From: Eledone cirrhosa
Taxonomy: Eukaryota
Assembly: GCA_964016885.1 (NCBI GenBank)
Contig: OZ024740.1
Span: 144,522,001 to 144,586,000 of the forward strand
Direction of reading: 5' to 3'
DNA length: 64,000 nucleotides
Position 1 is the first letter of the stretch. The number at the start of each line of letters is the position of its first letter. The notes beneath the pieces are model-generated. The model was not told the origin of the DNA. It was given only the letters and a program-made list of their open reading frames with translations, and made no database searches. The position numbers and the translations under genes are program-made. Positions 12,056-54,877 of the stretch are shown in pieces.

Positions 12056-12866
12056 TCGTTCTCAGTTACATGTGATCGATGCAACAACCCAAATATGCTG
12101 AAAATATTGATGGTTAGCGGGGGTGTTAGTGATACTTTCGACAGAGCTAATTCGTTCTTTGAGAGAAGCCATTTTTGTCTACCAACTCATATTCTTGGTG
12201 AAAGATTAGCCCAAGACAGACTATTTTTTTTATTAAAAATTAGTAAGACTAACGTAATTGATTGATGCAAATTCCTTAGAAATGTTAGCGAGCAGTTCCC
12301 GGGAGAAGCATCCACAACTATTCAATGGACTGGATGATGTAGGATACCCTGATAGTATAATTTATATGTATTTTATAACACACACACATATATATATATG
12401 TATAATTTTATTCACAGTTGTATAAATAACATTACAAATTGTTTATAATTAAGAATGAAAATATAAACACATATAATAAATACAATTAATTATTGCTAGG
12501 AACCTCACAAAAATATATGATCAAAGCGAGAGAAACAAAAACATTAGTTCACAACCAAATGCAACAATCGCCCAAACACCACAAGGGTCAACGGAAATGT
12601 TTAAGGCAAGCTAACACGCTCGCAGGTGATGGCGAGACTAAGGCGCTCAAACAACGAGCCACCTTCACTGTACTCAATACCGAAACAGTTTTAATATCCA
12701 CTTGTCATCAGACAATATTTAAACTCAAATTCGGTATTGAGTACTTTTCTCTCGTCCGTAAATATACGGATATATATTTATACTATAGTACAAATTTGGT
12801 ATAAATATCCAAGAGTTAGAGCACTCAGTCCATAGGACGAGTTAAGTATAATTAGTTACAACAGTG

Positions 12867-12925
12867 ACATGTACAGATACTTAAGTTTCGTTGGGTTATT
12901 CACCAACTCATCCAGCCTGATATAT
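12867..12925 (-). ncRNA. Predicted type-I minimal hammerhead ribozyme, variant core CUGGAUGA
   Basis: Minus strand: cagg-CTGGATGA-gttgg tgaataac ccaac-GAAA-cttaag-TA-tctg. Confidence 0.65.
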
Positions 12926-12944
12926 AATTTTAAAAAAGTTAATT

Positions 12945-13004
12945 ATATGACAGGCTGAATGAGTTGGGGGAATAACCCAACGAAACTTAAGTACCTGTAC
13001 ATGT
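12945..13004 (+). ncRNA. Predicted type-I minimal hammerhead ribozyme, variant core CUGAAUGA
   Basis: atatgacagg-CTGAATGA-gttggg ggaataa cccaac-GAAA-cttaag-TA-cctgt a catgt. Stem I is 10 bp with one bulge, stem II is 6 bp, stem III is the palindrome ACTTAAGT, and the site is GUA at 12991-12993. Confidence 0.75.
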
Positions 13005-14167
13005 CACTGTTGTAACTAATTATATATATAATTGGCAGTATATAATTTGTGTAAGCCACATGTGCGTATGTGTTTAGGTATTGCTTTTATTGCGGTTTTT
13101 TCTTTAAAAAAACAACGCAATGTTTTAATCCCCAGACTGCTCCACGGTAGTTGGCCAGATGTCAGAAATGATGGAACTACTACTAATCTCAATGTGGTCG
13201 CTTGACCGTTAGAAATAACAACCAAATCTCCCCCAGTACCATACTGTCTTGATGAAAAAAAAAGGAGATATTGGATATGTCCCAGATATCTGCAATGTCT
13301 AATAAAACAAAAGGAATAGTAACGACTGGAAGGCAGTGAAATAAGTACTATACTTATAAAATACTGCCTAAAAACAAGGGTTAATATATTATATGCGAAT
13401 GATTATCAAGAAATATGTATGGTGGTGCCACACACCGCTGGGTTCTGCAACAGTAGATTGTAAAATCCACCTAAGAACCCCTGACACGAAAGTGCTACAT
13501 CTTTATTAGGTGGTAAGATTTGTTTGGGTAGTGGTAATTTGAGAATGTATGCGCCATGATATCTTTCTTCCTACCTCCCTCTGTCACACAGTGTTGACAA
13601 AACATATTCACTCTCTAGTCTGTGGTAGAGCACCAGTTATCTATAGCTATTTACTTATACATATATGTGTGTATGTATAGATAAGGAGAAATATAATGTG
13701 TAACGACTATGTTTTTATGCATCTTCAGACAATAAATGCTTCTAGTTATCAATCTATTTACTTATCTGTCTGTCAGTTTATAGATCAATCTGTCTACTTG
13801 CACATCTATCTCTCTATCCACCTATTTATGTATATTTACCAATGTATCTATCTTCAGACAAAATCAAGAACTACAACAAAGCAGGAATCCCTATGGGAGT
13901 CTGAAGATAGATAGATATATACAAAGATAGAACAAAGCCATTGTAATTTAATGCAAAAAATATATCTATATATCTATAGAAGAAAATGATTGTAATTTAT
14001 TTAAATGAATGTAAAATTAAATAGAATAAAGGCTGGAGACACAATAGGGAGGTCAAGGATAATTGAGGATTCAAGCATCTTTACATAGAATATTGTAATT
14101 AGGGAATTATCAAACTAATATTTTTTCTACTGTAAACCCTGTCATTTTTTACAGGTATTGTTAGTCA

Positions 14168-14347
14168 TAATAATCGTTTCTACTTTTGGCACAGGCACGC
14201 AATTACCCAGTGCATTACTGGTACTTTATTTTATCGACCCCGTAAGGATGAAAGGCAAAGTTAACCTCGGCGGGATTTGAACTCAGAATGGCAAGGGACG
14301 TAACTAACTCTATGCGTCAAAGCATGGCGTCCGACCCTCTACCGATA
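14168..14347 (-). mobile_element. Young tRNA-derived SINE
   Basis: Near-identical to the copies at 16085, 23776, 43180 and 48450. Confidence 0.85.
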
Positions 14348-15446
14348 ATGATCATGGAAGTCAGTAGACCCATGATTTGATAAAACAAAAGTATAAAAAA
14401 TAAAATGGAGCTCTTGACATAACTTTCTCACTTTTTCACATTCATTTTAACATATCAATGTCTTGCGATAAGCAGTAAACATCGTTTTTGTTGTCAACAT
14501 ATATTAATATTTACATACATATATATATATATAATCATCAGGTAATAGCCCCCACCATTAATTTGCCTGTCTGTTTGTCTATCTCTTTATTTATCTACCT
14601 ACCAACCTACCTATTTTTTTGTATATTTGCTTATCAGTCTGTCTATCTATAGCTATCTATGTATATTTACCAATGTATCTATCTTCGGATAAGAACAACC
14701 ACAACAACAAAGCATGAACCCCAGCAGCCCAAATATAAATATATTGGTAGAACAAAATCATTGTAATTAATGGATATAGGTTTGATACTGATTACAGAAA
14801 ATCATCATTTAACACTTGTTTTCCCTGCTAACAAGGGTTCAATGAGTCTTCACAAACAGTCAGTATTCAAGTGGGGCTAGTGATCTCTCAGGAAAACCTG
14901 CATCTCACTTATATACAATCTTGTGCTCTACCGAGTGTATTTTATCATGACACCAGCACTAGGGGTGTTGTCATGCCTTTGACACGACAACACCCTGAAA
15001 GGTCCTCCCAACCCTTTGTTTGGCCAACTCTCTATGGCTGGATATTCTTATCACCAACCACTTTACCGGATGTACTAGCTACGTTTATCATGTAGACAAC
15101 CAACACTAGAGAGGCTGTCATAACTAAAGGATCTTCTTGATCTTGAACCTTTTCAGCATGGTTTCTACAATGAGGAGCCCTTCCTATCACCAACCAGCTT
15201 ACAGAGTGTAATGGGTTCATTTTTTGGCACTAGCACTACAGAGTTTGTTAGTTATTGTCCCAACTGAAAAACATTCTCTGCTGTGGGGGAGAGGTAAGGA
15301 AGATAAGTATGATGTTATGCATGTATGGTAGGTGTGATGAGTAGGGGGAACGGATGACCTTCAATAGCATGGGAGTAGTAGTCACTGGTGTCTCAGGATT
15401 TTTAGAGAGGAAATGCCATAACAGTGAGAATAGTTAAGGTGTGGTC

Positions 15447-15750
15447 ACAGGCATGGCTGTGTGGTTAAGAAGTTTGCTTCACAACCATGTGGTTTTGGGT
15501 TCAGTGCACACCACCTTGGGCATGTGTCTTTTACTATAGCGTCGGGTTGACCAATGCCTTGTGAGTGGAAGTTGATAGACAAAACCTGCAGAAGCCCATC
15601 CTATATATGTGTGTGTGTCAGAGTCTGTGTTTACATTTGTGTCTGGTGATGATCTGTCAGTTAGTGGTTTGACAAAAAGAGATTGATAAGATAAGTACCA
15701 AACTTGGAAAAATAGGTACTGATACAGCCTGGCTGCTGTCTAAAAACTGA
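15447..15750 (+). mobile_element. tRNA-derived SINE, second family
   Basis: A box tggctgtgtggtt and B box gggttcagt, followed by a ccttgggcatgtgtc core. Confidence 0.7.
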
Positions 15751-16084
15751 AACCAGTAAAAGACACATCCACATCGAGATATATATATGCATAGTAAGTG
15801 TCCACTCATTGCTGGGTATGACCAAAAGGGGAAGAGACAAACAGAGAGAATGTGTTGAAATGGCACATTGCGTAAGGGAAAGCTGAAAAAAGAAAAAAAT
15901 ACTTTGAATGATATTAAAGGATGTGGCAGTTGACAAACAGAAAACAAACAAGTTTGGTCTATTTCCAACAATATCGGAAGATATGACTGAATTGAATCAT
16001 TTAAAATATATATATGAGATTATTTCTTTCAATGTCCAAATATAGTTTGAAAAGTAAATCACGTGCCATTATCTATCCATCTCA

Positions 16085-16272
16085 GGCGGTAGATTGGCAG
16101 TATCGGTAGAGGGTCCGGACGCCATGCTTTCCAGCATAGTTACGTCCCTTTATGATCTGAGTTCAAATCCCGCCGAGGTTGACTTTGCCTTTCATCCTTA
16201 CGGGGTCGATAAAATAAAGTACCAGTAATGCACTGGGTATTTGCTGGCCTTGTGCCTAAAGTAAAAACAATT
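16085..16272 (+). mobile_element. Full-length young tRNA-derived SINE with TSD
   Basis: A box tggcagtatcgg, B box gagttcaaatcc; 15-bp TSD attatctatccatct at 16068-16082 and 16270-16284. Confidence 0.92.
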
Positions 16273-16850
16273 ATCTATCCATCTAATTATGTGACTTTCA
16301 ATCTATTTGACTAGTCAAGAACCCATCAATCTGTTCTTCTCAATTCTTTTCTTTTTGGCCTCTATATTTTTCATTAATCATTTTCTTTCTATCTTCCTTT
16401 ATATTTGATAACTTTCATAACTAGTCAAAACTAATCTTAAGTGAAGGGAGATAATTCTCCAGATAAAAATCTGGGTTATTTCCCCCTCTACAATTTACTG
16501 GCATATCCAGGATATACCAATATTTTCAATTATAACAGTACACGAAACAATATATATCCAATTGTATCCTAACAGCTGATCGCTTTATGTGTGTATATTT
16601 ATACATAGGTTGCAATCTAACAACTAAAACAAATAAAAAGAATATATATATTCATTTAATGGTTTCGGTCATTAGACTGCGGTCATGCTGGAGCATAGTT
16701 TCGGATAATACTTATTCTTTCAAGCTTGGCACTTTCTTTTGTCGAACCATTAGGTTACTGGACATAAAAACAAACTTAAACAGAGACACGCATACATATA
16801 TTTAGCAATCATATACTCTCTACATGCAAATAGTTATATTTTTACCTTTG

Positions 16851-16898
<48 letters not shown>

Positions 16899-19654
16899 CA
16901 TATATATATATGCAGTTTCTGTACTAAATCTCTGCGCTTATACACACACACACACACATATATATATAGCACAGGTAAAACTATATATACATAGATCAAA
17001 GGAAATTATATATGATAGTATATAATTGCCACGTCTTTTCAGAATTAGCTTTATATCGATGCCTAGATATTGATTATCCGAATTGTTTCATTACATTTTC
17101 GAAACACTGGATGTACAATTCCCCTGAAACATGTGTAAGGAATTAAATATGATTTAAAAGACAATTTTTCCATCTACATACTTGTTTATATATATATATA
17201 TATAAACATATAAGTGCAGCCATATGATGATACATATACGATTTCATCAAATCGGTCGCTAAATGTAACATATATTATTGAGGTCGTGATAGAGACACTA
17301 GATAATTAGTTCTTATCATTACAATATTAATCAAAGGTCCATTGTTATATTATCAAAACAAATAAGTAGACATATAGACCGATCTCTAACGCATTAAATG
17401 ATATATATATATATAGACACTAACTGCGGCTAGAACAAACGATTGTCATGAGGCAAAAAACAAAAGTCAAATATTTAAACAGGAAACCATTTTACGATTC
17501 GTTCATTGTAGGTTTTTCAAATTATAAATATCAAATAATTATGATCAAATAAATATAAAATTTACCAAAATGATCATATAGACATTAAAAATATAATAGA
17601 TTTTAAAAAAGTAATACATCTATGAAATCCTCGTTGAGGTCAAATTAGCCTTTCATCTTTCTGAGGTCTTTAAAATATAACACCAGTCAAATACTGGATC
17701 AATTTATATTTCTATAATGCATCCTTGATGCATATGGAATTATGATATAAGACGAAGTATTTTTAAAGGAAATTATAATCTGAGAGTAATTCTAAACCGC
17801 ATGCAAGCTTTTAAATCTGCTAAATTTTGTCAGTGTTCCCGATTAACAATCACTACGCTAAAATACAAACACGAGCACGTATTCGTTTAAGCGTAGGTTT
17901 TTAACCAACTCGACCTTTATTTAGTGTGCCTTTTGCCATTTATTTAAAAAAACAACGGTTTTATGATTTTTATATTTAGAACATCAGATATTCTGAATTT
18001 GCAATCATTCAAAAATTAGACACAAATTAAAGGATTTACAGTTATTTCCTGTTTTCGTTTTGAAATATGCCTTTACGAATATATATTATAGTACATTTTT
18101 GTACAAAAATATATTTTCATAAATTTTTGTTGTTGGCATTTGTAATTATATTAAAATCCAATTAAATTTTCAGAGAGAACCTACAATTTTCTTCATTGAA
18201 TACACATTACTATCATGCAGCTTAAGACATTCTTCTCATTTATCAATGTAATTAATATATAAATGCATTCACAAAACATTGGATTGAGATCCCTTATCTT
18301 TACTTTTTATGTCAATTAATTTTCTTTCCTTTTTTTTTAGATTCTGAACATCCGATGTTCAAATAAAATATCCGAAGACAATTTTTTTTTAAAACGGAAT
18401 AATAAAAAAAAGTTATAGGTGAGATTGAGAATCCACGTTTAAATTGTCCAAGCATGAAATAACATTGCTTACCTTCTTTTTTTCTTCTTTTTCTCATATT
18501 TTTTATGTAAATAACTAAATTTACGTGAACAACGACTCAGAAACCTCAGTTAAATCTTAGAGAAATGTCTCTATCGTGATCAGTCGAGATTGTTACCCTT
18601 AAATGTACATATGTTGGCGATCTTAGTTAGGTGTGATAGTACAAACTAACCGATACGTGGCAGTAGTTATGGCGTAATAACAAAGTGATAAATACAGATG
18701 TTCATTTCGCTATTTTCTCTTTAAGGAGTAACTGATAAGAGTTATCCACCTTTGACTAGATTAGGATCGATAGCAACCCTCTCTAGAGAAGAAGAAAAAG
18801 GTATTTACTGGTGTAAGGGTACTTGGCAGGAGAAGATCGAGATTTTATTATTTAGATGTAATTTAATGAAATAAACAGAAAAAAAAATTCAAAACACAGT
18901 AAAAGGAATTGTTGGAATCTTAACCATTAACAATTTGGCTATCGGAACGGAATTAGCCGCCCGCGTGGTGGACTGGCTGTTTCAGCGCGTCCTCCTCGCC
19001 GGCATACAGGATAATGCATTCTCCGCCTGTCAGTCGGGACCCAGAAGCGGAGAGTTAGTTAGTTGGTAGTGGAGTATACTCGTTCGGACGTTGCTTTCTC
19101 ACATGTTTTGATCCATTCATTTCATATAATAAACACAGAAATTCACAGACCCCCTCCCCATTAACTTATGAATATGGTAGAAAGGTAATCTATGTTGGAT
19201 AGAATGTAATTTATTTAGCACTACATGTGTTATTTATCTTGCTAATAACAACCAACTCTACTTTGCAATTAAAAATATATATATGCGACCTTTATACCAG
19301 GTAATAATCCTCCCCACCCTCGAGAATTTTTCACGTGCAGCACTCAGTTCAAGAATTCGTCCTTTCATTGAGGGGTCTCCTGAAAAGCCCATAGCCTCAT
19401 ATCCCTGGTGCAATTTAATTCCACTCTTGCCACATATCAGTCAGTGAAACTGTGCAGCCTGGACTTTGAAGAAAAAATTAGGTATATTTTGTCTATTTTC
19501 TCTTCACAATTATAATTGTTATATACATATACGCGCGCGTGTGTGTGTTGATCCCTAGTAGAATCGAGGGTAACCACAGTAAATAAGGTACTCAATACAT
19601 AAGTGAGGGCAACCACTATAAAACTTATAAATACCAATGACTTACTATATCAAC

Positions 19655-19707
19655 TGGCATTCCTGATGATTTCATATGAATGAAATACTTCTAGTCCCAA
19701 AGAAGCC
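19655..19707 (+). ncRNA. Degenerate hammerhead-like motif
   Basis: CTGATGA-t ttca ta tgaa t-GAAA is present, but stems I and III are poorly paired. Confidence 0.4.
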
Positions 19708-19875
19708 TTTTCTATATTAAATCTTCATTATATATATATATATAAGCAAAGAGATATTTAATTTGTTGGTTATTCAACAAATTTATTTATAACAGATTCG
19801 AAGCACTCTGCAAGTTTTCTGGAATATAATATCAATGATATTAATAAATGGAAACTATATTTATAAAACCATATT

Positions 19876-19936
19876 TATTTTATTATATATATTTCAAGGG
19901 TACCAAAATTTTGGTACGCACTCATCAGATAAAATA
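19876..19936 (-). ncRNA. Predicted type-I minimal hammerhead ribozyme
   Basis: Minus strand: tattttat-CTGATGA-gtgcgtaccaaaattttggtaccctt-GAAA-tatata-TA-ataaaata. Stem I is 8 bp and stem III is palindromic. Confidence 0.72.
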
Positions 19937-20077
19937 CATTTCTTTTATAAATGGTGACATACTCAGTTTGGATAGATTGTTACCCTTAAATGTACATATG
20001 TTGGCAATCTTACTGAACCTGAACCGATAAGGTCTGGTTTCTTGGGTATGTCATCACCATTTATAAAACAAATTTTG

Positions 20078-20138
20078 TATTTTATCTGATGAGAACATAC
20101 CAAAATTTTGGTACCCTTGAAATATATATAATAAAATA
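20078..20138 (+). ncRNA. Predicted type-I minimal hammerhead ribozyme
   Basis: tattttat-CTGATGA-gaacataccaaaattttggtaccctt-GAAA-tatata-TA-ataaaata. The base of stem II is mismatched. Confidence 0.65.
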
Positions 20139-20181
20139 AATATAGTTTCATTTATTAATATCATTGATATATATATATATA

Positions 20182-21038
20182 CGAGGAGTGTCAGAAAATG
20201 TCCAGGACTGATGTCACAAAAGATTTATTTCAAACCCAAACTTCACACTAAGAGTTTTCTCCTTCGAAGTAATCCCTCTGGAGTCTAATGCACTTTTCCA
20301 TCCTTTTCTTCCACGCTTGCATGCACTCCTGGAAGGATTCTTCCGGGATCCTCCGCAGTTCCGTCATCAAAACGGGTCCCCTCCGGGTCGTACTCGAAGA
20401 TCCATGACTCATCACCAATGATGACTGTCCCTAGCAAGTCTGGTTCGGTTTCAAGACGCTCGAGGATGTCGTGGCACACTTGCATGCGTCGACCCTTCTG
20501 GTCATCGTTCAGCAGTTTTGGCACCATCTTCACGCAGACTTTCCGCATATCCAAATCTTCAGTGAGAATCTTCCAGACGCTGTCCCGATTCATGCCCAGC
20601 TCATTTGCCATCAGTCGAACAGTCAGTCGACGATTGCTACGCACCATCTGCCTGACGCGCTCAACATTGACCTCAGTCCTGGTTGTTGAGGTCCTTCTTC
20701 TCCTGGGGTCATCTTGCACCACTCAAAAACACGTGAGCGTGACATCGTCTCATCTCCATACACTTGATGCAGCAATCCCAGTGCTTCTGACGGAGTTTTC
20801 TCCAACCGTACCAGAAACTTCAAGTTTGTTCGTTGCTCTGTGCTCATTGCTTGACGACCTGAAACAGAGGACATGTATATAAAATTACGAAGAAAAAGGT
20901 TTGATCGCTGCAGAGAGCTAAGATTACAGTTACATACTCCAGGGGGATTACTTTGAAGGAGAAAACTCTTAGTGTGAAGTTTGGGTTTGAAATAAATCTT
21001 TTGTGATATCAGTCCTGGAACTTTTCTGACACACCTCG
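20182..21038 (-). mobile_element. Internally deleted mariner with about 105-bp terminal inverted repeats
   Basis: TA-cgagg...cctcg-TA ends. Transposase remnants MSTEQRTNLKFLVRL, KMVPKLL and GDESWIFEYDPE, with the catalytic middle deleted. Confidence 0.92.
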
Positions 21039-21042
21039 TATG

Positions 21043-21238
21043 TAGTCAAAAGTAGAAGTTATATATGTGTGTGTATATATATATAGAGAGAGAGAGAAAG
21101 AACCATATATCCAGAGAAGGCACAGTATATTGTATATGTAATCTCCGTAATATGGATTTAGTATATATGCAATCTACTCTGTCATATATGGTTCTTTCTC
21201 TCTCTATATATATATACCTATATATTCTACTTTTGACT
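21043..21238. repeat. Imperfect inverted repeat among TA/GA tracts
   Basis: agtcaaaagtagaa...gagagaaagaaccatatat versus atatatggttctttctctc...ttctacttttgact. The left-arm segment recurs at 21540-21590. Confidence 0.75.
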
Positions 21239-21637
21239 TAATATTGCTCTGGATAATGTCTATTGAGCTAATTTATTGAGAAACTCATAATTTTGACATA
21301 TATATATATATACAAGTTAATATAAATTAATATATGATAAACACTAATATAAACATATAAGTGTTTGTATTGTAAATGACCAAGTTAGCTAGTCATTATT
21401 TCACTGCTCAGAAATGCTTCTTTCTTTGAGCTAATTAATTGTAAAGGACTGTTTGAGTTTATAACTCTAAATATAATATAGTATATATATATATATACAA
21501 ATGTAACATATACATATCAAAATTACAAGATATATATATAGAGAGAGAAAAAGGACCATACATCCAAGAGAATACACAATATATTGTATATATACAAAGT
21601 ACATATTTCAAAGAAAAATATGTACTCAAGATGGAAC

Positions 21638-21775
21638 CAATAAATTTCCTGATAGCGCTATTTCATGTCTTGTAGAGGCGCAACCTAAAACCGATTTACA
21701 TAATCGATTATCGATAACAAACTATCCATTTTAGTTAAGTTACAAGAGACACAAGACAATCATCAGAGGTTATTG
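21638..21775 (-). ncRNA. Predicted type-I hammerhead ribozyme with long stem-II loop
   Basis: Minus strand: caataacct-CTGATGA-t tgtcttgt (77 nt) acaagaca t-GAAA-tagcgcta-TC-agg aaat ttattg. Stem III is the perfect palindrome ATAGCGCTAT and the site is AUC. Confidence 0.72.
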
Positions 21776-25729: not shown

Positions 25730-28274
25730 CATATAGAGGGAGAGTGGGAATTTCTGAAAGCAAACCTGCTGTTGGCGACAGACGAAGTCTGTGGCTGGAG
25801 CAGGCCTGTAGGCAGGAGGAGAGTAACATGGTGGTGGAACAGTAAGGTGGAGGGGTCAATTAAGGCCAAAAAGCAGGCTTGGAAAGTATGGCGGGATGGG
25901 GGAAGTAGAGAGGACTATCAAGTGGCCAGGAGGGAAGCTAGGAGACAAGTGTACTTAGCAAGAAGGGAAGCTGAGGAAAGAAAGTTCAAGCATGTTCTAC
26001 AACGCGATGACCAAAAACGTGAGGTGTTCAGGATTACTAGGCAATGCGTCAAGGAAAACCGTGATATTGTCGGGGAGAAGTGTGTACTAAACGACGATGG
26101 CACACTTGCCATCACCGACGCTGATAAGAAGGTAGCTTGGAAGTGTCACTATGAAAGGCTACTAAATGAGGAGAATAATTGGGAGAAAGGCAGTCTCCCC
26201 CATATCGACCCAATAGAGGGACCAGCAGTGTTAGTCGAGGGGAGTATAATAAGTAAGGCAATCAAGGATATGAAGACGGGTAAAGCGGCTGGGCCTTCGG
26301 AAATAGTTGCTGAGATGCTGAAGGCATCTGGCACGGTGGGACACACCATGGTCACCCGCATAGTTAACCAAGTCGTACAGAATGGGGTTGTTCCGAAGGA
26401 CTGGCATAGCAGCATCATCGTTAACTGTTATAAGGGTAAAGGAGACGCCCTAGATAGGAGTAACTATAGAGGCATTAAATTAATCGACCAGGTCATGAAG
26501 GTCACGGAAAAAGTAATAGCGCAACTAATCAGAGAGAGAATTGACCTAGATGAAATGCAGTTCGGGTTTGTGTCAGGCAAAAGTACCACAGACGCTCTTT
26601 TCATAGTACGACAACTACAGGAGAAGTACCTAGCTAAAGGTAAACCCCTCTACTTAGCTTTTGTCGACTTGGAGAAAGCCTTCGACAGAGTCCCCCGCTC
26701 CATTATCTGGTGGGCTCTTAGAAAACTAGGCGTTGACGAATGGCTTGTGAGGGCTATACAAGCCATGTATAAAGAAACAGTCAGCAAGGTTAGAATTAAC
26801 AACGAATATAGTGAAGAGTTTAGCGTAAAAGTTGGCGTCCATCAGGGCTCTGTTCTCAGCCCACTACTATTTATTATTGCCCTTCAGGCTATAACAGAGG
26901 AGTTCAAGACAGGCTGCCCATGGGAACTCCTATACGCAGACGACCTGACACTCATAGCGGAATCAATGGCCAAGCTAGAGAAGAAATTCCAAACATGGAA
27001 GCACGGCCTAGAGTCAAAAGGACTTAAAATTAACCTGGCTAAGACCAAAGTACTAGTTTGTAGGAAAGAAAACAAGGCGGCGGTCCCTTCTGGGAAATGG
27101 TCGTGCTCGGTGTGTAGGAAAGGCGTAGGTAGAAACTCCATTTTATGTCCTAAATGCAAAGTATGGGTGCATAAAAGATGTAGTGGGATCACAGGTAAGC
27201 TAACTAAGAACATAGATTTTACATGTGGCCGGTGCTCTGGTGCAATAAGTAGCAGCAAGTGCCCACAAACTACTAGCTCTTTCAATTGCGCAGAGGGTTC
27301 TATAGAAATAGTGGACAGCTTCCGTTACCTGGGCGATAAAATCAGCAGTGGGGGAGGGTGCTCTGAAAGTACTGTAGCTAGAGTCAGAACTGGTTGGAAA
27401 AAGTTCAGAGAGCTTATACCACTATTAGCTGCTAAAGGGTTCTCACTAAAAATGAAAGGCAGGTTGTACGATGCCTGCATACGAACAGCAATGCTGCATG
27501 GCAGCGAGACCTGGGCATTGTATGCAGAGGATATACGCAGACTAGAGAGGAACGAAGCTTGCATGCTCCGCTGGATGTGTAACAGTAATATACGTGAACG
27601 GCAAAGCATAAACGAACTAAGGAAAAAATTAGAGATAAGAGGGATCAGATGTTGTTTACTCGAGAGAAGGCTACGTTGGTATGGACACGTGATGCGCATG
27701 AAAGTCGATAGCTGTATAACAAAGTGCAGGGCAATAAAGATAGACGGTAGTCACGGAATAGGCAGACCTAGAAAAACCTGGGACGAGCTGATAAACTCCG
27801 ACATCACACACTTACACCTCTCCAAGACAATGTCACTGGACCGAGACCTTTGGCGGTACTCAGTAACAGAGAAGACCCGCCTTACCTAAATATATAGTAA
27901 AACCTACTCCAGCCAGTAGGCATCTCTAACAAAATACACCCCGTCCCACCACCACCACCCCATCCACACCACCCCGTTCTATGTAAAGTTATGTTGGTGC
28001 CGCGCCATCGAGGCCGAAACAAATGAGATCGTGTAGGTGTCACGACAAAAAACACACAGTCCACGCTGTAATGTGGCCGTGTAGGCAACACGGTAAAAAC
28101 CTCCCAGACCCACACTGTAAATGTGGTTGGTGTTAGGAAGGGCATCCAACTGTAGAAAACCTGCCAGACAGTCCTATGCGAGCAAGACAATCACTCTTGC
28201 CTCAAGTGGGACTACCCCCGTCCAAACCCATGCAAGCGTGGAACACGGACGTTAAACGTTGATGATGATGATGA
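25730..28274 (+). mobile_element. 5'-truncated RTE-clade LINE
   Basis: Long RT ORF, 3' UTR and (GAT)n tail at 28260-28274; the AP-endonuclease part is absent. Confidence 0.93.
25772..27889 (+). CDS. RTE reverse transcriptase (partial ORF) with inserted PHD-type finger
   Basis: 705 uninterrupted codons with NYRGIKL, QFGF, FVDLEKAFD, GVHQGSVLSPLLF and LYADD; C4HC3 pattern at 27104-27235. The frame is open from 25730 with no native start. Confidence 0.92.
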   Translation: MATDEVCGWSRPVGRRRVTWWWNSKVEGSIKAKKQAWKVWRDGGSREDYQVARREARRQVYLARREAEERKFKHVLQRDDQKREVFRITRQCVKENRDIVGEKCVLNDDGTLAITDADKKVAWKCHYERLLNEENNWEKGSLPHIDPIEGPAVLVEGSIISKAIKDMKTGKAAGPSEIVAEMLKASGTVGHTMVTRIVNQVVQNGVVPKDWHSSIIVNCYKGKGDALDRSNYRGIKLIDQVMKVTEKVIAQLIRERIDLDEMQFGFVSGKSTTDALFIVRQLQEKYLAKGKPLYLAFVDLEKAFDRVPRSIIWWALRKLGVDEWLVRAIQAMYKETVSKVRINNEYSEEFSVKVGVHQGSVLSPLLFIIALQAITEEFKTGCPWELLYADDLTLIAESMAKLEKKFQTWKHGLESKGLKINLAKTKVLVCRKENKAAVPSGKWSCSVCRKGVGRNSILCPKCKVWVHKRCSGITGKLTKNIDFTCGRCSGAISSSKCPQTTSSFNCAEGSIEIVDSFRYLGDKISSGGGCSESTVARVRTGWKKFRELIPLLAAKGFSLKMKGRLYDACIRTAMLHGSETWALYAEDIRRLERNEACMLRWMCNSNIRERQSINELRKKLEIRGIRCCLLERRLRWYGHVMRMKVDSCITKCRAIKIDGSHGIGRPRKTWDELINSDITHLHLSKTMSLDRDLWRYSVTEKTRLT

Positions 28275-34950: not shown

Positions 34951-34988
<38 letters not shown>

Positions 34989-36363: not shown

Positions 36364-36367
<4 letters not shown>
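36171..36367. mobile_element. MITE with imperfect TIRs
   Basis: cagagacctgtcaactct versus agaggttggcatatctg; internal tctcccaccca/tgggtgaga hairpin. Confidence 0.55.
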
Positions 36368-36417
<50 letters not shown>

Positions 36418-40577: not shown

Positions 40578-40616
<39 letters not shown>

Positions 40617-40623
<7 letters not shown>

Positions 40624-41500
40624 TATATTTGGAGATGGTCATGTTGCCATATTACCAATAAAAAGAACACACATACCATATGATTTTCACTTTTTCACTT
40701 TGTCTTTAATACAGGAAGACTTGGGATGAGGTGATAAAAGCTGACCTTGCCCAACTGCACTTCTCAAAGGCGATGACACAGGACCGAGATTTCTGGCATT
40801 ACGCAGTAATACAGAAGACCCGACTTCCGATGGACATAGGTCGAAGCTGAAGCATATATATACAATATGCCCCACCCACCCTCCCACTCTAAAGTGGTTG
40901 TGTAAGTCTCACGATAAAAAGCATCCAATCACAAGTGGTCATGTAAGTGTCATGACAAAAGGCACCCAGTACTCACTGTAAATGAAGTTGGTGTGAGGAA
41001 GGGCATCCAGCTGTAAAGACCAAGCCCAAATCAGTTCTGTATGAGCAAGACATGGTCATCTGACCTAGTATTGCCCACAACAGGACAACTCGTTTAACCC
41101 ATGCTAGTGTGGAAAATGGACGTAAAACAGTGATAATGATGATTGGTTAGTTCATCAAAGTTCTTTCATCACACATTCTGTGACCTCCTCAATGACTATT
41201 TGTTCTCTTAATCTGTTACTCCATCGAGTCTCCTTTTTGTGGTATACAACAAAAAGGAGTAACAGATAAAGACCAGAAAGAAGGAGGTTTAGAAGAGAAC
41301 AAATAGTCATTGAGGAAGGACATCATGGAATGTGTGATGAAAGAAGTTTGATGAACTAACTAATAACTAGTAATAAAGGTAAAATGGAAAAGTGAAAATT
41401 ATGGCATGTGTGTTTTTTTATTGGCAATACTGGCAGCATGACCATCCCCAAATATAACAATATCTGTTTCAACACACGATTTCACATCAATAATCTTGCA
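40617..41500. mobile_element. Old fold-back element of the same family as 53544-54877, interrupted by an RTE-tail insertion (about 40715-41140)
   Basis: Termini tatatttggagatggtcat and atgaccatccccaaatataacaatatctgtttcaacacacgatttca match 53523-53569; inner arms at 41143-41222 and 41256-41362. Confidence 0.8.
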
Positions 41501-43155
41501 AAACATACATAAATGTATATATATATATTAAGAAATTGAAAATAAAATAAAAATATAGGAAAAACAACAGCAAAGAGTAAATTTACTCTCTGAAATATGA
41601 GGGACAGTATCTAATGTTTGTGCTTTTGGTAATAAGGCACCAGATATTTTCATAATGCTTTGTGATATATAGCATCTTATCCTAGAGGAAATTTATTCCC
41701 CATGCTCTAAATGCCCTAAGCTGTTGTGGCCAATCATGCCATCCAATATTATCATTATCATGCCAGCATATAATCTGCCCTTTACACTGAGAGAGAAGCC
41801 TTTTGTTGCCAGCAGAGGTAACAGCTCCCTAAATTTCTTACACTCTGGCTAGGACACTTTCAGTACATCCACTGCCACTGCTAATAAGATCCACTAAATA
41901 TCAAAAGCTATCTACTACTCCTAGTAAGCCTTTCAAGTATATGAGGGAGTTGATTTCACGAGTACTCTTATTGTTGACTACTTCTGTGCACCTATCACAC
42001 AAAGCTGACTGTCTCTCTCAATCTATCTGTGACCCCACTGCATTTCTTGTATGTCCACTGTCCACACCAGGTGCACCATGTAGAGTTTTTACCAACTCCT
42101 TTTTGGTACATTGAACATAGCCATTTGCCTGATGCTATCCAAGTCCCAGCATATTCTTACATTCATTTTCCATGCTGCCATGGGTTGGACAGGTCACTAT
42201 AATCAGAATTACTTCTTATTTGGAGTTACTGTGCTCCTAGATAGGCAGAACTAGGTCATGCTTATATATTCCAATTTTGGAATGATTTCTAAGGCTGGAT
42301 GCCCTTCCTAATGAACAATTTTACAAAGTGAACAGGATGCATTTTATGTTGGCCCCAACACTTAACAAAACTGAAGAGGCCTCTGTACTCTATGTTGTCT
42401 CTATTTGATCAATCACTTTACAGAGTGTGCTGAGTGCGTTTAATCATAGCACCAACACTAGAAAAGTTGTCTTGTCCACTGCAAGGCCAAAGTTCATGCA
42501 GTCTGTTCATTTAAGGCTAGATTGGGGGTGTGATTTGAAGGGAAATGTTGACCAAAACCTGAAAGGAGAAGGAAAGTGACAATAGTGGGTAGGAAGTTGA
42601 GTAAGGAAGCAACATGAGCAACATGATAAGACACCAATAGAGAGTGAGTGATGGATACCATGAAAGAGAGAGAATGTGTGATGGTATTGAATATGGAGTA
42701 GTAAATGTCAACAGGGAGTCTCATAAAAGAGAGAATGATGAGAATAGGGTCAGATTTAATGTCAAGGTAAATGATGGTGGGGAGAAAACAATGGTGAGTG
42801 TGTATGTGGGGGAGAGAGAGAGAGAGGGGGGGGATTGTGTACTGACTTATGATTAATTTTATAAAAAGCTGTAATAGCTGAAGAGAGAAGTTAATATACA
42901 GGATTGTTGGCTAAATGATTCTGAGTTCAAACATTATTACTTTGTTGTGCTACTGGATGTGTCCTACTTCTTCATAGCTAGCATTAATCCTTTCATTATT
43001 GTATTTCAAATGAATGACTGCCTAAGATTTTCAAACAATTTGGAGGGATTTAGTAATAGAACTAAACTTTCTAAATATTAAGTTGTTATTTGGAACATAA
43101 AGGTTCTTTAAAAAAAATTATCATGGAAGGTTATAAATAAATATAAATACTTTAA

Positions 43156-46500: not shown

Positions 46501-46729
46501 GAAGAGCAAGAGTTGATTTTTAAAATGCTGAGTATTTAAAGTGGATGGAACCTGTGGAAGAGAGAAACCAAGGAAGACATAGAAGTTGTGAAGAATGACC
46601 TAAACAAACAGAATCTCACAAGGAGATGACACAGTTTTGTTTTGGTGATGGTGTGTGTGAGGGGAGTAGAAATAACAGCAGAAAATGTATAGCAAAAGAT
46701 GCCATATTGGTGAATATTCTGAGTTTATA

Positions 46730-48449: not shown

Positions 48450-48623
48450 AATTAGAGGGTCGAATGCCATGCTTTGACGCATAGAGTTACGGCCCTTGCC
48501 ATTCTGAGTTCAAATCCCGCTGAGGTTAATTTTGCCTTTCATCCTTACAGGGTCGATAAAATAAAGTACCAGTAATGCACTGGGTAATTGCTGGTCTTGT
48601 GCCAAAAGTAGAAACAATTATTA
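48450..48623 (+). mobile_element. Young tRNA-derived SINE
   Basis: Same family as 16085-16272. Confidence 0.85.
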
Positions 48624-49589
48624 TGGGGAAGAATTTATTTTGAGAATTGTAAGGAGGAAGGAAATAGGGAAGAAGTACCAAAATACAGAGATAGTTTTGT
48701 TTGAACTTAGAATATAAATTCTGAGGTTGAGTAGTATTTCCAATAAAGCTAGAAGAAAGAAATTAATCAACCGAAGAGAAAGAAACTAAAGCAGATTGGT
48801 GAAAGAAAAATCTTCTGTATTTATTTAATTTGGAACGGCAAAGGCTATAAAACAACTACAGCAATCAGGATATTGGAATAATGTTTCACAATAAAACAAC
48901 TTTAGACTTGATATTGATCCTTGTGATATAGATCCAGTGAAGGCGTGTGGCTGAGTAGTTAGAGAATTGAATTCGCAATTGTTAGGTTGTGAGTTTGATT
49001 CCTGGACTGGGAAATGTGTTATGTCCTTGAGCAACCTGAAGTTGCAACCGATAGATAGTATTAGCAATTGGAAAGACCAACAGAAACATTGTTTCCTCAG
49101 TCCGATTTGACGAAGGTCGATCAACTGTCGATAGATCCTTGTACATTCTAAATTGATAATAAATTTATAAGAACGTTTTCATTTCAGGGCGACCTACAGG
49201 ATAAAGTGGGAAGCATTGGTGGATAAGGAAGTCAGGACCAGGTATGCAGATACTATTGCATCCAAATTCAGAGAATTCCCTGAGCAAAGTGAGTATCTTG
49301 AGACAGAGTGGAGATGGTTCAGTGCAGTAGTTTCTGCTTCAGCTGTTAAATGTTGAGGGCGAAAGAGGCTTACAAAGCTTGGCTTGGAAATAAGTCCCCC
49401 TTCTTGCACTAGTGGTACAAGCAGGCGCGAAGAATCACAGCAGAGACAGGAAAGGCATCCAAAGTTCTTGGAACCTTCCAAAATTCTGCAGGAGTATGGG
49501 ATCGATGGTCAGCTCCTTGCTGCCCTGATGTCTCTACACAAAGCCTTCAGCAGTGAGGGGGGATGTTATCACCTGGATTAGAAAGATAA

Positions 49590-51390
49590 AAATTGGTCAC
49601 TACACTGCAAGGCATCAAAAATGTGTTTAGCTTCATGGCACTGTATCTTGATGGCAACATGTTAGCATTGTACTTCAAAATGGACCAGGCAGACCAATTG
49701 AACACAGAGAAGATAGAGCAGCGCCTTAAGGAAGTATTCACTGAGGGATCTTATGCTGCTTTCATCAAGCTAGGCATAGTGAGATGGACAGGAGAGCAGG
49801 TGGATGAATTTGTGGTGGAAATCCAGAGGTTGGCTATGCTAACTGAATTCACAGGAGTAAATCTTGAAAGGGCCATATGGATGATGTTTGTGAATGATTT
49901 CTTTGAATAAATTTTGGTGAGGCTCCAAAAGTTGCTGGGCAACAACAAAAGAGCCATGGGCAAGCTAATCACATAGGCCCACATAGTGACACAAGGCATT
50001 GAGCAGGATGTTGCAGCAATAAGAAACTGCAGGAAGCTGAAGCCTGAAATAATCTGCTACCGATGTAAGCAGACAGGCCACATCATCAGCATGGTTAAAG
50101 GGGAGTTACTGTGCCGGTAGCTACCCTTGGAAGCAAGTAAAGGCACTCATGTAGTCGCTGCCCATAGAGGAGGTTCTGGTGGTGGTGGGGAAGCTGTCAT
50201 GAGCCTTAGCGGATACAGGCTACATAACATTTGTGACCCAAGAGTGGGATGAGTAGTGTAAGGGAAGTTGATGGCAGGGAGATTAGATGCAAAGGTAGCA
50301 GTAAGGTGGAGATGGCAGTACCAGGAATGAAAATACGGTTGCAGGTGATCGTGATCGACCGTGCGGTGGATGGAAATGATGTGGTAAGGGGCATGGATGT
50401 GACTGGCTGCTCAGGAGGCATTATAGTGAGTGAAGACGGGGTAATGTTTGGTAGTGCAGGAACACCATGCACCATGAGTGTGCAACAGGGGAATAGGGAG
50501 ATCCATGAAGAAAAATGTGCTGTTCATACCATACAAAACAAGGATTTCAGGGCTGTGTTCAATGGTCAGCAGAGGAAAGTTGTGTGGTACTGGAAAGGGG
50601 AGCCCCAACATTGAAGAACAGAGTGAACTGCAATCTGCAAACTCTGGAAAGAGGAGATAAAGAGTGGAGTGTTGTCATTAATGACAGTAGTGCAACCAAC
50701 AAAGAACAAGGTCAGGCCGGTGCTGGACTTTCGTGAAATCGATGAACACGTGTTGTGCCATACAGGTGGGGAAGTCACAAATGTCTGCTTGGAAACCTCG
50801 CGTGAGTGGAGACAACTGTAGGGGCTTCTGCAATTGTCAACTTAAAGTCAGCATATCTGCAGCTACATGTAGCTGAGAAACAGTAGAAGTATCAGCTGGC
50901 CAGGTATAAGAGCCAGACATACTGCCTGACCAGGCTGAGGTTTCGGTTGAATTCGGCACCAAAGATCACGCCAGTAGTTCTCAAGGCTACTCTAAGGAAA
51001 GTGAACAAGGTAAAGAGGGCCACCAATTCCTACATCGATGATATCTTGGTAGATAAGACTGTGGTGTTGGCAGCAGAGGTCTCGAGGCACCTAGGAAGAT
51101 TCAGGTTAACCGTGAAACCATCAGAGGCAATGGAAGAAGGATTCACACTCTGGGAAGAGACAAGACGGGCACATTGGTGTTTCAGAGGGGAATTAAAGTC
51201 CCAGAACTGGGCACCAGCATAAACAGACGAGAACTTTTCTCAATTTGTGGGAAATTGGTGGGCCACTTTCCAATCACGGGACGTCTTCAAACAGCATGCA
51301 GCCATGGCAAGAGATGAGCAAACAGGGTGAGCTAGGAAGACAGAGTGAGAGAGATGATGGTGGTCATGTTGCGGGATATCATGATGCTGG
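49590..51390 (+). mobile_element. Decayed Ty3/Gypsy LTR retrotransposon internal region
   Basis: gag-like ORF 49593-49910, ICYRCKQTGH knuckle near 50050, protease-like ORF 50249-50614 and RT motif SYIDDIL at about 51030. Confidence 0.85.
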
Positions 51391-53543
51391 ATATCTAAAA
51401 ATTTAATTTTAAAGCTAACTACCTTTTAATGACTTTGTCGTGACTGCTTGTTGTAGGAAAGCATTTTGATACTTCGTCACAACATGGAGGTCCATAGTTT
51501 CAACTGAACCTCTAGATGGGCATTCGCCATTTATGATCTCAAAGGTATCTTGATTTTGGTTAGGTAGGAGAATGTAGATTCACAGCAATAAAAGGTTGAA
51601 AAGCAAGAGAGTTGCTGAAGGTTTGGGTATTTTATTGCATTTTTCCATATCTCAATTGGTTCTTTCTTAGCGTCAAATAAAGCCACACAGAATGGCATAA
51701 AAGGCTGCATGCAGCCTTAAGGCCGCAGGTTCCCCATCTCTATCTAAACCATTTTAAATCCTTATAAAGTTTAATCCAAGTAGAAATGATTCTATTAACA
51801 ATTATGTTACAAATAATTATTTGTAACAGTTTGATATAGGTTGAAGTTATGGAAGAGAATAACTGGACAAGCTTTTAAAAATATTAATGTATTGTGTCTC
51901 AATAATATGTAAATAATATAGATTTTAAGGCAGCAAATAGACATCAGAGAGAATGGTTTTCATTTCTGCTCCCTGCAGCTCTAATTTCAAATAATGCCAT
52001 AGTTAACTTTGCCTTTCATCCTTTTAAGATCAATAAATAAAGTACCAAGCCTCAGTCCACCACTGATGTCAATTCTAATTTCCTCTCTCTCAATTATGTG
52101 TGTGTGTGTGTCTCTCTCTCAATTATGTATCTGTCTGTCTCTCTCACATTTATGTGTCTGTCTGTCTCTCTCACATTTATGTGTCTGTCTCTCACTCTCT
52201 GTTCAGATCTGGAGAAAGGATGGGTTCTACCAGATTAAAGTATCATAAAGGTACCCCAACAACTTACTCAGGAGTTACAGGTCCATAGATTTTGTATTAG
52301 TATAATTTGTAAAATAAAAAGAAAAAAAAAAGACAACTATCCACATCCTTAAAAAAAAAAACATTCAGTATTTCTATTAATTAAAATAATTGTTTCTACT
52401 TTAGGCACAAGGCCAGCAATTACCCAGTGCATTACTGGTACTTTATTTTATCAACCCCGTAAGGATAAAAGGCAAAGTCAAATGATTAACTTTCTAACCT
52501 GCCTCTCTATCTCTCCTGCTGTTACTGGTAAGTGCTGTGGTGTCCTAGAACTTACAGTTCTTAATGCCCTAAAGAGAGTTGAGATACTTTTTCATTCAAC
52601 CCATGCAAGCATGAAAAACATGATGACTGATACATACTGAAAACATTTTCAGAAATTAAACTTTGAATATCTTTTTAACACCATATATACATGGTATAAA
52701 TGTGCAAACTATTTAAATAACCTAGAAAAAATAGATTGGTGCATGTTATAAAATTAAATACTTATCTAATGCCTTTCTCTTTTCCTTCCTATCTCACTCT
52801 CCTGAATATATATTAATGGAGACCTCAGCAGTTGGGCTGAGCCTGAGTACTGCAACTGTCATGTCTATCTATTTCGAACTAACAAGAAATGGCTTAGAAC
52901 ACTACATTCTATACTTGTTCAACCTAAAGGCATAACTCAAGACTTGTTCAAACCTGAAGGCATAACTCAAGCAGACAAATTTCCACCCAAACAATTAAGA
53001 ATTTAAAAAATCCTGACTGAATTTAATATATAATACATTTTTCAACTTTATAACTTAAAATGTTGACCTAAATAAATTTCATATAATAATGTCATTGTGG
53101 TTACTAGGGCTCAATTATACAGGGACAACAAAATGAACCAGCACCCTTTCGTTCATCCTTTTAATAACCTGACTTGGGCTAACAAATTTTCACCTAAATT
53201 ATAATGAATAGTCATTAAAATCTCAAATGATTTTAATTCCATACTTTCAAGGAATATGACTTTGTTACAACTTCATAATATGAAATGCCAGCTTATATCA
53301 ATTTTGCAGTTCATAATACTAGTTATATGAAGAAAATTTTATGAAGTGGATTAGGGGTTACAAAAGGATCAGAATGATTTGAAGAAGTGAAAACGTCTGA
53401 AAGAAAAAGGGGGAGAAGGCCAAGGAAAATTTGTGGATTTAAGTGTCTTCACATAGAAAATGAAGGAATTATTATTATATATATATATATATATATATAT
53501 TAGTTTTGCGAGGTTTTTTATATGAAATCGTGTGTCGAAACAG

Positions 53544-54877
53544 ATATTGTTATATTTGGGGAGGGTCATATTTGCGTAATATTGCCAGAATTAATAACAG
53601 AACACACTCACTGTTTGGTTGGTTTTCGCTTCTCGCTGTCTTTTATATATATAAATCTGCGATCTAACTTACTCGGTCCTCAATGTTGCCATTGACTGAC
53701 CGGCGGTCAAAAATAATACAGATACAATATAGACAAACACATATATATATAGTTTACATAAATCTTTCGTTGCACATCTGCAACATCGTCAGTGGTGTTA
53801 TATTCATTGTTCCTCCTGTTGTGTTGTATGTCTACGCCATTTTTTTTTGTTCAGTCTGTCTATATATTTATTTATTTATTTGCTTGTTTGTTTATCTTAT
53901 TTTATTTTGTCTTCTTTGCGCATGCGTTTGCGTGTGTGTATAGTGTTATGTGTGATGTGTGATGTGTGACTAGTGTGTATAGTGTTGTCTGCTGGGTGAC
54001 TAGTGTGTGTTTATGTGCTTGTGTATGTATTTATTTATCTTATTTTATTTAATTTAATTTACTTATTTATTTATACTTCTCTTAGGTCAGTGTTGTTTGT
54101 TTGGGTGTTGTTGTTGTTCCACTCATTCTTTCTGTTTAGCTTTGGTCTTCTAATTTCTATTTCACTGGCCTCTCTGATTTGCCTATCTGCTGGGTCATTC
54201 CTATGTTTATCTAAACATAGGAATGACCCAGCAGATAGGCAAATCAGAGAGGCCAGTGAAATAGAAATTAGAAGACCAAAGCTAAACAGAAAGAATGAGT
54301 GGAACAACAACAACACCCAAACAAACAACACTGACCTAAGAGAAGTATAAATAAATAAGTAAATTAAATTAAATAAAATAAGATAAATAAATACATACAC
54401 AAGCACATAAACACACACTAGTCACCCAGCAGACAACACTATACACACTAGTCACACATCACACATCACACATAACACTATACACACACGCAAACGCATG
54501 CGCAAAGAAGACAAAATAAAATAAGATAAACAAACAAGCAAATAAATAAATAAATATATAGACAGACTGAACAAAAAAAAATGGCGTAGACATACAACAC
54601 AACAGGAGGAACAATGAATATAACACCACTGACGATGTTGCAGATGTGCAACGAAAGATTTATGTAAACTATATATATATGTGTTTGTCTATATTGTATC
54701 TGTATTATTTTTGACCGCCGGTCAGTCAATGGCAACATTGAGGACCGAGTAAGTTAGATCGCAGATTTATATATATAAAAGACAGCGAGAAGCGAAAACC
54801 AACCAAACAGTGAGTGTGTTCTGTTATTAATTCTGGCAATATTACGCAAATATGACCCTCCCCAAATATAACAATAT
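53544..54877. mobile_element. 1334-bp palindrome made of a Penelope-like 3' end
   Basis: 666-bp arms with a 2-nt spacer (54210-54211); mirrored ORFs are identical outside the spacer. The centre encodes RQIREASEIEIRRPKLNRKNEW, like the C-terminal end of a PLE GIY-YIG domain. TA tracts on both sides. Confidence 0.85.
54629..54660 (+). ncRNA. Partial hammerhead-like core (mirrored on minus at 53761-53792)
   Basis: CTGACGA-t gttgca gatg tgcaac-GAAA; stems I and III are not evident. Confidence 0.4.

Follow-up and report, generated by a model that had tools for sequence, protein, structure and literature searches.

Fold-back units with opposite-strand hammerhead motifs are very probably head-to-head 3' ends of Penelope-like elements in (TA)n

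Three of four inverted-repeat units (units 1, 2, and 4) in a 64,000-nucleotide stretch of DNA, which as a whole is called the window here, are very probably pairs of 5'-truncated, head-to-head 3' ends of endonuclease-bearing (EN+) Penelope-like elements (PLEs) lying in (TA)n. Unit 3 probably represents an older case of the same kind. The mirror layout itself likely arose during insertion. Such a layout is known from the PLE literature, as are hammerheads on opposite strands, and the finding itself is ordinary.

RESULTS

Four inverted-repeat units, each with a one-sided tail

A previous sequence-only reading had placed four inverted repeats in TA tracts of the window. All of them were confirmed at coordinates close to those claimed, and all four were flanked by (TA)n; because the flanks are (TA)n, a target-site duplication is unreadable. 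The arm identity of unit 1 was 88%. Unit 3 was composed of outer arms (40616–40712/41370–41463) and inner arms (41142–41364), with the left arm interrupted by an insert of ~430 bp, and unit 4 had 666-nt arms that were 100% identical (666/666) and separated by a 2-nt spacer. The units had been called sequence-distinct, which does not hold for units 3 and 4, as they share ends (41438–41528 vs 53477–53569, 87%). Each unit also carried a one-sided extension absent from the earlier reading, and all four were made up of an inverted 5'-truncated copy with a tail on one arm and none on the other. The units and related features are as follows:

12847–13024, both arms: unit 1, probable head-to-head 3' ends of PLE family F1 (Hydra-type by motifs)
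12780–12846 (outer end approximate), minus strand: one-sided tail of unit 1, beginning with an ACTC...GAGT hairpin
19824–20176, both arms: unit 2, probable head-to-head 3' ends of PLE family F2 (Hydra-type by motifs)
19744–19823 (outer end approximate), minus strand: one-sided tail of unit 2
19974–20012, plus strand: 39-bp insert at the junction of unit 2, 38/39 identical to window positions 18587–18625
40616–41463: unit 3, putative old head-to-head pair of family F3, with a left-arm insert at ~40713–41141 and without a canonical hammerhead
41464–41504, plus strand: one-sided 41-bp tail of unit 3, homologous to the tail of unit 4
53544–54877, both arms: unit 4, perfect palindrome of family F4, junction with 2-nt microhomology
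53503–53543, minus strand: one-sided 41-bp tail of unit 4, continuing the frame that opens the ORF of a full-length-like copy (L050)
21530–21720, minus strand: solo end of another TA-associated repeat family, without a hammerhead core

The 39-bp insert of unit 2 was likely templated during joining. Copies of family F3 were ~80% identical to each other. For unit 4, the identity of 666 out of 666 bases would suit a fold-back artefact of long-read sequencing, as would the finding that no contig in four sequencing runs out of 24, whose contigs were all of unknown or DNA kind, spanned its junction. Such an artefact is nevertheless highly improbable, considering that the tail is one-sided, the flanks differ, and seven other loci have a like layout with different junctions.

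Hammerhead motifs in the arms

Each arm had been described as holding a hammerhead or hammerhead-like core. An intact core was found in five of the eight arms, but unit 3 had none and that of the left arm of unit 1 was mutated. The motifs are as follows:

12950–12998, plus strand: right hammerhead of unit 1, core CTGAATGA, predicted cut after 12993
12873–12920, minus strand: left mirror hammerhead of unit 1, mutated core CTGGATGA
19876–19936, minus strand: left-arm hammerhead motif of unit 2
20078–20138, plus strand: right-arm hammerhead motif of unit 2
54627–54664, plus strand: right-arm hammerhead variant of unit 4
53757–53794, minus strand: left-arm mirror of unit 4, identical to the right-arm motif
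19653–19697, plus strand: solo of a separate repeat family, with a core, short stems II/III, and no core-proximal stem I

The right arm of unit 1 showed a type I fold with a palindromic stem III and an 8-nt core. In unit 2, the core of both arms was CTGATGA; stem I was 8 bp long, stem III was palindromic, and the base of stem II held mismatches. In family F2, stem II paired at 7 of 9 positions in 57–64 of 66 distinct arms, with one fixed mismatch. Both arms of unit 4 contained CTGACGA and a single unpaired base; stem II measured 6 bp, stem III was wobble-palindromic, and stem I had just 2 bp. Judged by the CUGANGA/GAAA/UH core and stems I–III, units 2 and 4 carry predicted type I hammerheads as variants, and the right arm of unit 1 carries one with a single inserted base. 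At the corresponding site of the unit 3 family, CTGANGA occurred in 0 of 29 copies and TTGAYGA in 11 of 29.

Two solo motifs had also been listed. The one at 19655 was hammerhead-like, with a family-wide core (CTGANGA..TGAAA in 12 of 19 copies) and short stems, whereas the one at 21638 did not qualify as a hammerhead (core in 0 of 19 copies). A strict hammerhead scan of the window returned two motifs. A relaxed scan returned four, against a shuffle mean of 0.48, and none of 100 shuffles reached four; one of these, inside a LINE fragment, is probably due to chance. The Rfam scan matched no hammerhead family at E<=10; its sole hits were hairpin-type miRNA models that fell short of their cut-offs. 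The TGAGT-like motif noted 3' of several cores is in fact GAGT(G/A): three families carry in their tails an ACTC...GAGT hairpin of which this is the 3' strand. The instances at 54811 and 21621 are not part of it. Taken alone, the hairpins of the tail region were weak (z −0.3 to −2.1).

Links to autonomous PLEs

A Penelope origin had been proposed for the units, and reading frames with RT/GIY-YIG were indeed linked to units 1, 2, and 4. The arms of unit 4 matched copies L046–L048 at 99.8–100% and comprised the last ~47 codons (residues 731–777) of a 777-aa RT+EN frame together with the 3' end. F4 is a young PLE family that counts as RT+GIY-YIG by its deduced protein: the match to Pfam RVT_1 had an E value of 1.6e-4, under the curated cut-off, and the Atlas neighbours at 0.97 carried GIY-YIG/RVT_1/HTH_animal. 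As Pfam gave no GIY-YIG match in any of four proteins, the EN call rests on motifs and the Atlas neighbours. Copy L050 had a 5' pLTR, a start frame (MTLPKYNN..), and an ORF of 1111 aa with an Asn-rich insert. In this copy, the pLTR and tail overlapped the ORF start (tested for F4), indicating that the ends of the F4 arms are the first ORF codons, as in Pen2a_Av (PMC3846280). With a C-terminal GIY-YIG-type EN after a CX4CxxC linker and CCHH residues, F4 resembles the Neptune and Nematis clades and may be assigned to one or the other by these motifs, which are common to both and not diagnostic alone.

The F2 arm was linked, across 1.35 kb of AT-rich 3' UTR, with an RT/EN frame bearing the motifs DKT, CNCRDESNC (CxCX5C), and CHLC (CxxC). 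For F1, the unit 1 arm was present at 25 of 30 loci chosen by EN-end DNA; the linker CSCRRPETC, CQLC, and CPH were found, the frames were degenerate, and the DKT region was not recovered. The motif set (DKT in F2, CxCX5C, CxxC/CxH, and no CCHH) would place F1 and F2 in the Hydra clade. Protein P0001 gave no significant alignment with Hydra-type RT, consistent with separate clades. For unit 3, no contiguous RT link was found in 30 loci, and just the ORF-start terminus was homologous to F4. Interpretation of the units as DNA transposons (MITEs) was rejected on the basis of the asymmetric arms, the variable junctions, and the PLE ORF ends inside the arms.

Divergent pairs and their tails across the genome

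The enrichment of divergent pairs was real. A 15-mer of F2 had 18,119 copies genome-wide, forming 2,379 divergent pairs, with ~7 (7.4) expected by chance, and 34 convergent pairs, the convergent control being limited to gaps up to 300 bp and under-counting tail-to-tail pairs. This enrichment is accounted for by the published insertion layout of PLEs (PMC3846280, PMC8557442) and their opposite-strand hammerhead pairs (PMC4209133).

With a tail threshold of 45, exactly one tail was present in 43 of 50 sampled F2 pairs (24.8 expected under independence, p=1e-7). The same was true of 22 of 30 F1 pairs (p=0.006), for which the threshold was reset to 45 after the fact, since 32 scored TA runs as tails; under the initial threshold of 32, 18 of 30 pairs were one-tailed and the tail-less arm was the longer in 6 vs 11. 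The tail-less arm reached further 5' in 29 vs 10 F2 pairs (3 ties) and, by eye, in 6 vs 1 F4 pairs (1 tie), a bias not repeated in F1 (10 vs 9, 3 ties). Pair junctions held either small inserts or short stretches of microhomology. The two arms of a pair came from one subfamily; an arm matched its partner at a median of 0.96 and the median other arm at 0.84, and the partner equalled or surpassed the closest non-partner arm in only 21 of 49 pairs.

A favoured 5' boundary of F2, ~70 nt before the core, was reached by 22 of 49 pairs, which suggests a short template RNA, and 26% of F2 motif copies sat in divergent pairs. Both observations would suit specialised non-autonomous elements, similar to retrozymes or MITEs, whose hairpins spread as a whole with the help of PLE enzymes. 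We consider this unlikely, for the junctions varied by locus (only L228 and L229 shared one, in a way that resembles local duplication), longer copies extended into the autonomous 3' UTR and ORF, and the units had no tandem arrays like those of animal retrozymes. The units had been regarded as non-autonomous derivatives, which is correct only in part: their arms are ends of autonomous families that have been cut short, and the junctions vary, though the 5' boundary of F2 keeps a short, trans-mobilised transcript possible. They resemble animal non-LTR retrozymes, as described in a preprint (bioRxiv 10.64898/2026.07.22.740005), in being non-coding and PLE-related and in carrying a type I hammerhead. 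Retrozymes are head-to-tail tandem repeats, whereas the units here are inverted pairs with variable junctions, or solos.

DISCUSSION

One-tailed divergent pairs are consistent with a process in which both target strands serve as primers and two start sites are used, and among the mechanisms of insertion we lean somewhat towards this one. The enzyme of the element would nick both target strands, and each target 3' end would prime reverse transcription on the sense RNA at one of two nearby internal sites, of which one would yield the tail and the other none. The two cDNAs would stop, often at a common 5' boundary, and be joined via microhomology or end-joining repair. The hammerheads would be copied passively, facing outwards, and the hairpin would mask them in a read-through transcript. 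In vitro, PAc nicked and extended both strands, with two internal starts bounding the tail (PMC11167929).

The same PLEs might instead insert through one cDNA, or an antisense RNA as proposed in PMC3846280, that folds back and primes itself, the tail being added or trimmed at resolution. We hold this to be possible but rather doubtful, a grading that concerns this step among the mechanisms and leaves the PLE identity unaffected. Self-priming would explain perfect palindromes with offsets of 0–5 nt (unit 4, L046, L049), the 36 derived variants common to both arms across 49 pairs, and the junction palindromes reported in PMC3846280. However, the shared variants may be subfamily variants, and a tail cannot arise by copying a tail-less first strand, yet of 39 decided F2 pairs, 29 had no tail on the spacer-holding arm, and the same held for 14 of 17 pairs with only one arm at the 5' boundary.

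Near-equal arms, with offsets of 0–5 nt, were seen in 3 of 8 F4 pairs and in many F2 pairs; these fit snap-back self-priming as well.

In its full form, priming of both target strands on sense RNA is put forward tentatively. The fold-back stubs, in their thousands, may record the head-to-head inversion of PLEs through priming at two sites, where synthesis from the tail-less site usually comes first and extends to the RNA 5' end, and the adjacent ACTC...GAGT hairpin may mark the start in Hydra-type families.

It had further been supposed that the paired ribozymes are a candidate RNA switch and ADAR substrate. In its strong form, this would be a selected switch, with the hairpin or ADAR editing controlling self-cleavage of host transcripts. 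It is established that a perfect hairpin such as that of 666 bp, if transcribed, is a strong dsRNA substrate. The switch itself found no support and is very unlikely: in a read-through transcript from either direction, the antisense arm is made before the ribozyme; the hairpins, with predicted folds of −119 to −1190 kcal/mol vs −8 to −14 for the ribozymes, are predicted to be 8- to 150-fold more stable; and cores or stems have decayed in units 1–3. At the DNA level, neither 49 pairs nor a comparison of the two arms within each of the four units showed a same-strand A>G excess, and in a search of sequencing runs no RNA run contained more than 0.06 of the words. Single minimal PLE hammerheads gave no cleavage as monomers (PMC4209133). 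The paired opposite-strand motifs, which have already been reported from other animals, probably arise incidentally during insertion.

Known PLE insertion units combine an inverted pLTR with a one-sided tail (Pen2a_Av, PMC3846280; PMC8557442). Like units of the Pen2a_Av type, those described here have a head-to-head inverted 5'-truncated copy, a tail at one end, AT-rich targets, junctions that are palindromic or show microhomology, first ORF codons that are overlapped by the pLTR and tail, and an Asn-rich ORF insert (L050). Unlike them, they are mostly ORF-less stubs with thousands of pairs per family, and the tails of the Hydra-type families measure 65–80 bp vs 30–40. F1 and F2 share DKT (recovered in F2), CxCX5C, CxxC, CxH, and (TA)n targets with the Hydra clade, including Hydra-1_Obim, as well as the type I hammerhead with a palindromic stem III (PMC8557442). 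Their hammerheads differ from the motif listed for Hydra-1_Obim in the same source; F1 has a fixed extra core base, and F2 a 1.35-kb AT-rich 3' UTR.

Dual opposite-strand hammerheads 100–700 bp apart have been ascribed to truncated PLEs (PMC4209133). The motifs here resemble the minimal PLE hammerheads of that study in the palindromic stem III and the unpaired base before stem II, and the F4 motif matches its D. virilis variant with a 6-bp helix II and a 2-bp helix I. The one-base insertion after A6 in F1, a low-activity variant in PMC3088659, is fixed across the family here.

The value of this data set lies in the 2,379 inverted pairs of one family, with junctions and tails against which models of second-strand synthesis in PLEs can be tested, and in a young, near-identical family that offers base-exact junctions. 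If true, two-site priming on sense RNA would replace the published idea of antisense self-priming for the inversion, a step termed undefined in the literature. In what is likely a cephalopod genome, the hairpins would also be a plentiful potential source of dsRNA, with relevance to the sites at which RNA is edited.

Fold-back units and their hammerhead motifs

The sequence-only reading had described four inverted repeats in TA tracts, and all four were found close to where it had placed them, set in (TA)n.

Fold-back units of the window and their hammerhead cores
12847-13024: unit 1; core intact in the right arm, mutated in the left arm
19824-20176: unit 2; core intact in both arms
40616-41463: unit 3; no canonical core
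53544-54877: unit 4, a perfect palindrome (666 nt, spacer 2 nt); core intact in both arms

The set is not fully sequence-distinct as had been claimed, because units 3 and 4 have common termini (87% match). A tail, the extension beyond one arm, was one-sided in 4/4 units. The junction of unit 2 contains 39 bp (19974-20012) copied from 18587-18625, 1.4 kb upstream. Two further fold-backs, absent from the earlier reading, were seen at 21044-21238 and 7870-8058, the former having sequence in common with 21530-21594, which belongs to a family without a hammerhead core.

A hammerhead or hammerhead-like core had been proposed for every arm, and an intact one was present in 5/8; a canonical core was found in 0/29 copies of the unit 3 family. 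For the two single motifs proposed outside the units, the one at 19655 has a core and short stems without the core-proximal stem I, whereas the one at 21638 has no core, nor does any copy of its family (0/19). A relaxed motif scan of the window returned 4 motifs versus 0.48 in shuffles (n=100); it missed unit 2, the right arm of which was picked up by a strict scan. In F1, the Penelope-like element (PLE) family of unit 1, the core (e.g., 12955-12962) had one extra base after A6 in 21/28 copies and was canonical in 0/28, and the canonical pattern was matched in 2/28 F1 loci picked by their GIY-YIG-type endonuclease (EN) end. The core with the extra base is a variant for which PMC3088659 reports low activity.

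The TGAGT-like motif noted 3' of the cores forms the 3' strand of a hairpin, ACTC...GAGT, which lies near the start of the tail. Among GAGTR-bearing arms, this hairpin occurred in 35/38 of F2 (the unit 2 family), 13/20 of F1, 4/6 of the 19655 family and 0/10 of the 21638 family.

Other elements adjoin the units or lie elsewhere in the window.

Neighbouring elements in the window
3020-3983: broken transposase, which we take from its motifs to be mariner-type
20176-21044: element with 109-bp inverted ends (94%), inserted into the TA tract immediately next to unit 2, with a broken transposase (minus strand); presumably Tc1/mariner-type, judging by its motifs
25730-27889, plus strand: open frame of 719 codons, LINE-type reverse transcriptase (RT)
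54983-55786: degenerate relative of that LINE-type RT, adjoining unit 4

Links to Penelope-like elements

The suggested Penelope origin, with arms linked to RT/EN frames, was borne out for units 1, 2 and 4. A search of the 3.0 Gb genome with the unit 4 end gave 10 other loci, all retrieved for comparison; several match at 98.6-100% and 3 have long RT+EN frames. The unit 4 arms correspond to residues 731-777 of the RT+EN protein plus the 3' end. In a near-full-length copy of F4, the unit 4 family (locus L050, 4604-8843, on contig G000:C8), there is a 5' pLTR, and a start frame of 76 codons stops shortly before an ORF of 1111 aa that uses another frame and has an Asn-rich stretch resembling those of rotifer PLEs. 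The frame change may reflect an intron or a mutation. The tail-less end lies ~9 codons and the tailed end ~23 codons into this start frame. The F4 linker carries CX4CxxC and CCHH, as in Neptune and Nematis. Pfam matches of F4 were weak, with RVT_1 below the cut-off, and a second Pfam search of the PLE proteins matched no domain; Atlas neighbours of the F4 protein, at 0.97, bear GIY-YIG and RVT_1.

In F2, an AT-rich stretch of 1.35 kb connects the arm to an RT/EN frame bearing the motifs DKT, CxCX5C and CxxC. F1 likewise connects to an RT/EN frame (linker CxCX5C), and the unit 1 arm was present in 25/30 loci selected by EN-end DNA. According to PMC8557442, these motifs are Hydra-clade marks. 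SINE sequence and a resemblance to Hydra-1_Obim suggest that the host is an octopus or a relative. Unit 3 is an older family (~80% identity among copies); its end and that of unit 4 share one start peptide, and no RT link was found among the loci compared.

The fold-backs are new families of an already known PLE layout. PMC3846280 describes inverted pLTRs, a tail at one end only, an overlap with the start of the ORF and palindromes where copies meet head-to-head; PMC8557442 reports the same layout with (TA)n targeting in Hydra elements, lists an octopus Hydra family bearing a hammerhead, and terms the origin of inverted structures undefined. Dual minimal hammerheads on opposite strands, 100-700 bp apart, appear in PMC4209133. 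Published counts of tail pairing or arm polarity were not found in a literature search covering few subscription papers.

Hairpin formation versus self-cleavage

An RNA switch in which hairpin formation competes with self-cleavage had been proposed. The evidence does not support it: read-through of a divergent pair would yield the antisense arm first, whichever the direction, and the hairpin is predicted to be far more stable (-119, -155, -333 and -1190 kcal/mol versus -8 to -14 for ribozyme folds). A lone minimal PLE hammerhead reportedly gave no cleavage (PMC4209133), and the ribozyme of PAc, a PLE whose protein was assayed in vitro, required protein and could be dispensed with for insertion (PMC11167929). 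No same-strand A>G excess was seen in the DNA of 49 pairs or between the arms of the four units.

Pairing, tails and junctions across the genome

The unit 2 hammerhead 15-mer has 18,119 copies genome-wide. Divergent pairs, which the sequence-only reading had proposed testing for enrichment, numbered 2,379 at 30-300 bp spacing, against 7.4 expected by chance. Convergent pairs numbered 34, a control count that is too low, as the tails take up space. With a 16-mer of F1 that includes a CpG, 30 divergent pairs were obtained.

On contig C1, the 50 F2 pairs at the head of the listing comprised 43 with a single tail, 6 lacking a tail and 1 with a tail on both arms (p=1e-7 versus independent choice). 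Exactly one tail was found in 22/30 F1 pairs with the threshold reset to the F2 value and in 18/30 before the reset. In 45/49 F2 pairs, an arm was closer to its own partner than to the median other arm. The F2 junctions (n=49) comprised overlaps of 1-5 nt (16) or longer (7), one blunt join, inserts of 1-6 nt (16), and 9 longer or unresolved.

Loci L228 and L229 (G000:C1, 86.08 and 86.13 Mb) lie 51 kb from each other and contain the same fold-back within the same flanks, one copy reversed relative to the other, which probably reflects a local inverted duplication. Different PLE families often adjoin one another, or nest one within another, in shared TA tracts (L054, L113, L115, L190, L245 and L247).

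Arm polarity and the inversion step

According to PMC11167929, the PAc protein acts on both strands of its target, nicking and extending each, and starts at two internal sites bounding the tail; PMC3846280 proposes antisense-template self-priming. We infer both-strand priming and 3'-end joining for the fold-back pairs. One insertion event would prime both target strands, giving one tailed and one tail-less cDNA, both antisense, and joining of their 3' ends would produce a head-to-head pair with ribozymes facing outward.

Of 42 F2 pairs (1 duplicate and 7 not one-tailed being excluded), 29 had the tail-less arm extending further 5', 10 had the tailed arm doing so and 3 were tied (p=0.003). The F4 pairs, read by eye, gave 6, 1 and 1, respectively. 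This bias was not repeated in F1, which split 10 versus 9 with 3 ties, and the pooled count of 45 versus 20 (p=0.003) hides its absence there. A fixed 5' boundary was reached by at least one arm in 22/49 F2 pairs; in one-tailed pairs, the tail-less arm alone reached it in 14 and the tailed arm alone in 3. This boundary may be a transcription start. The thousands of junctions in this genome are a potential resource for settling the PLE inversion step.
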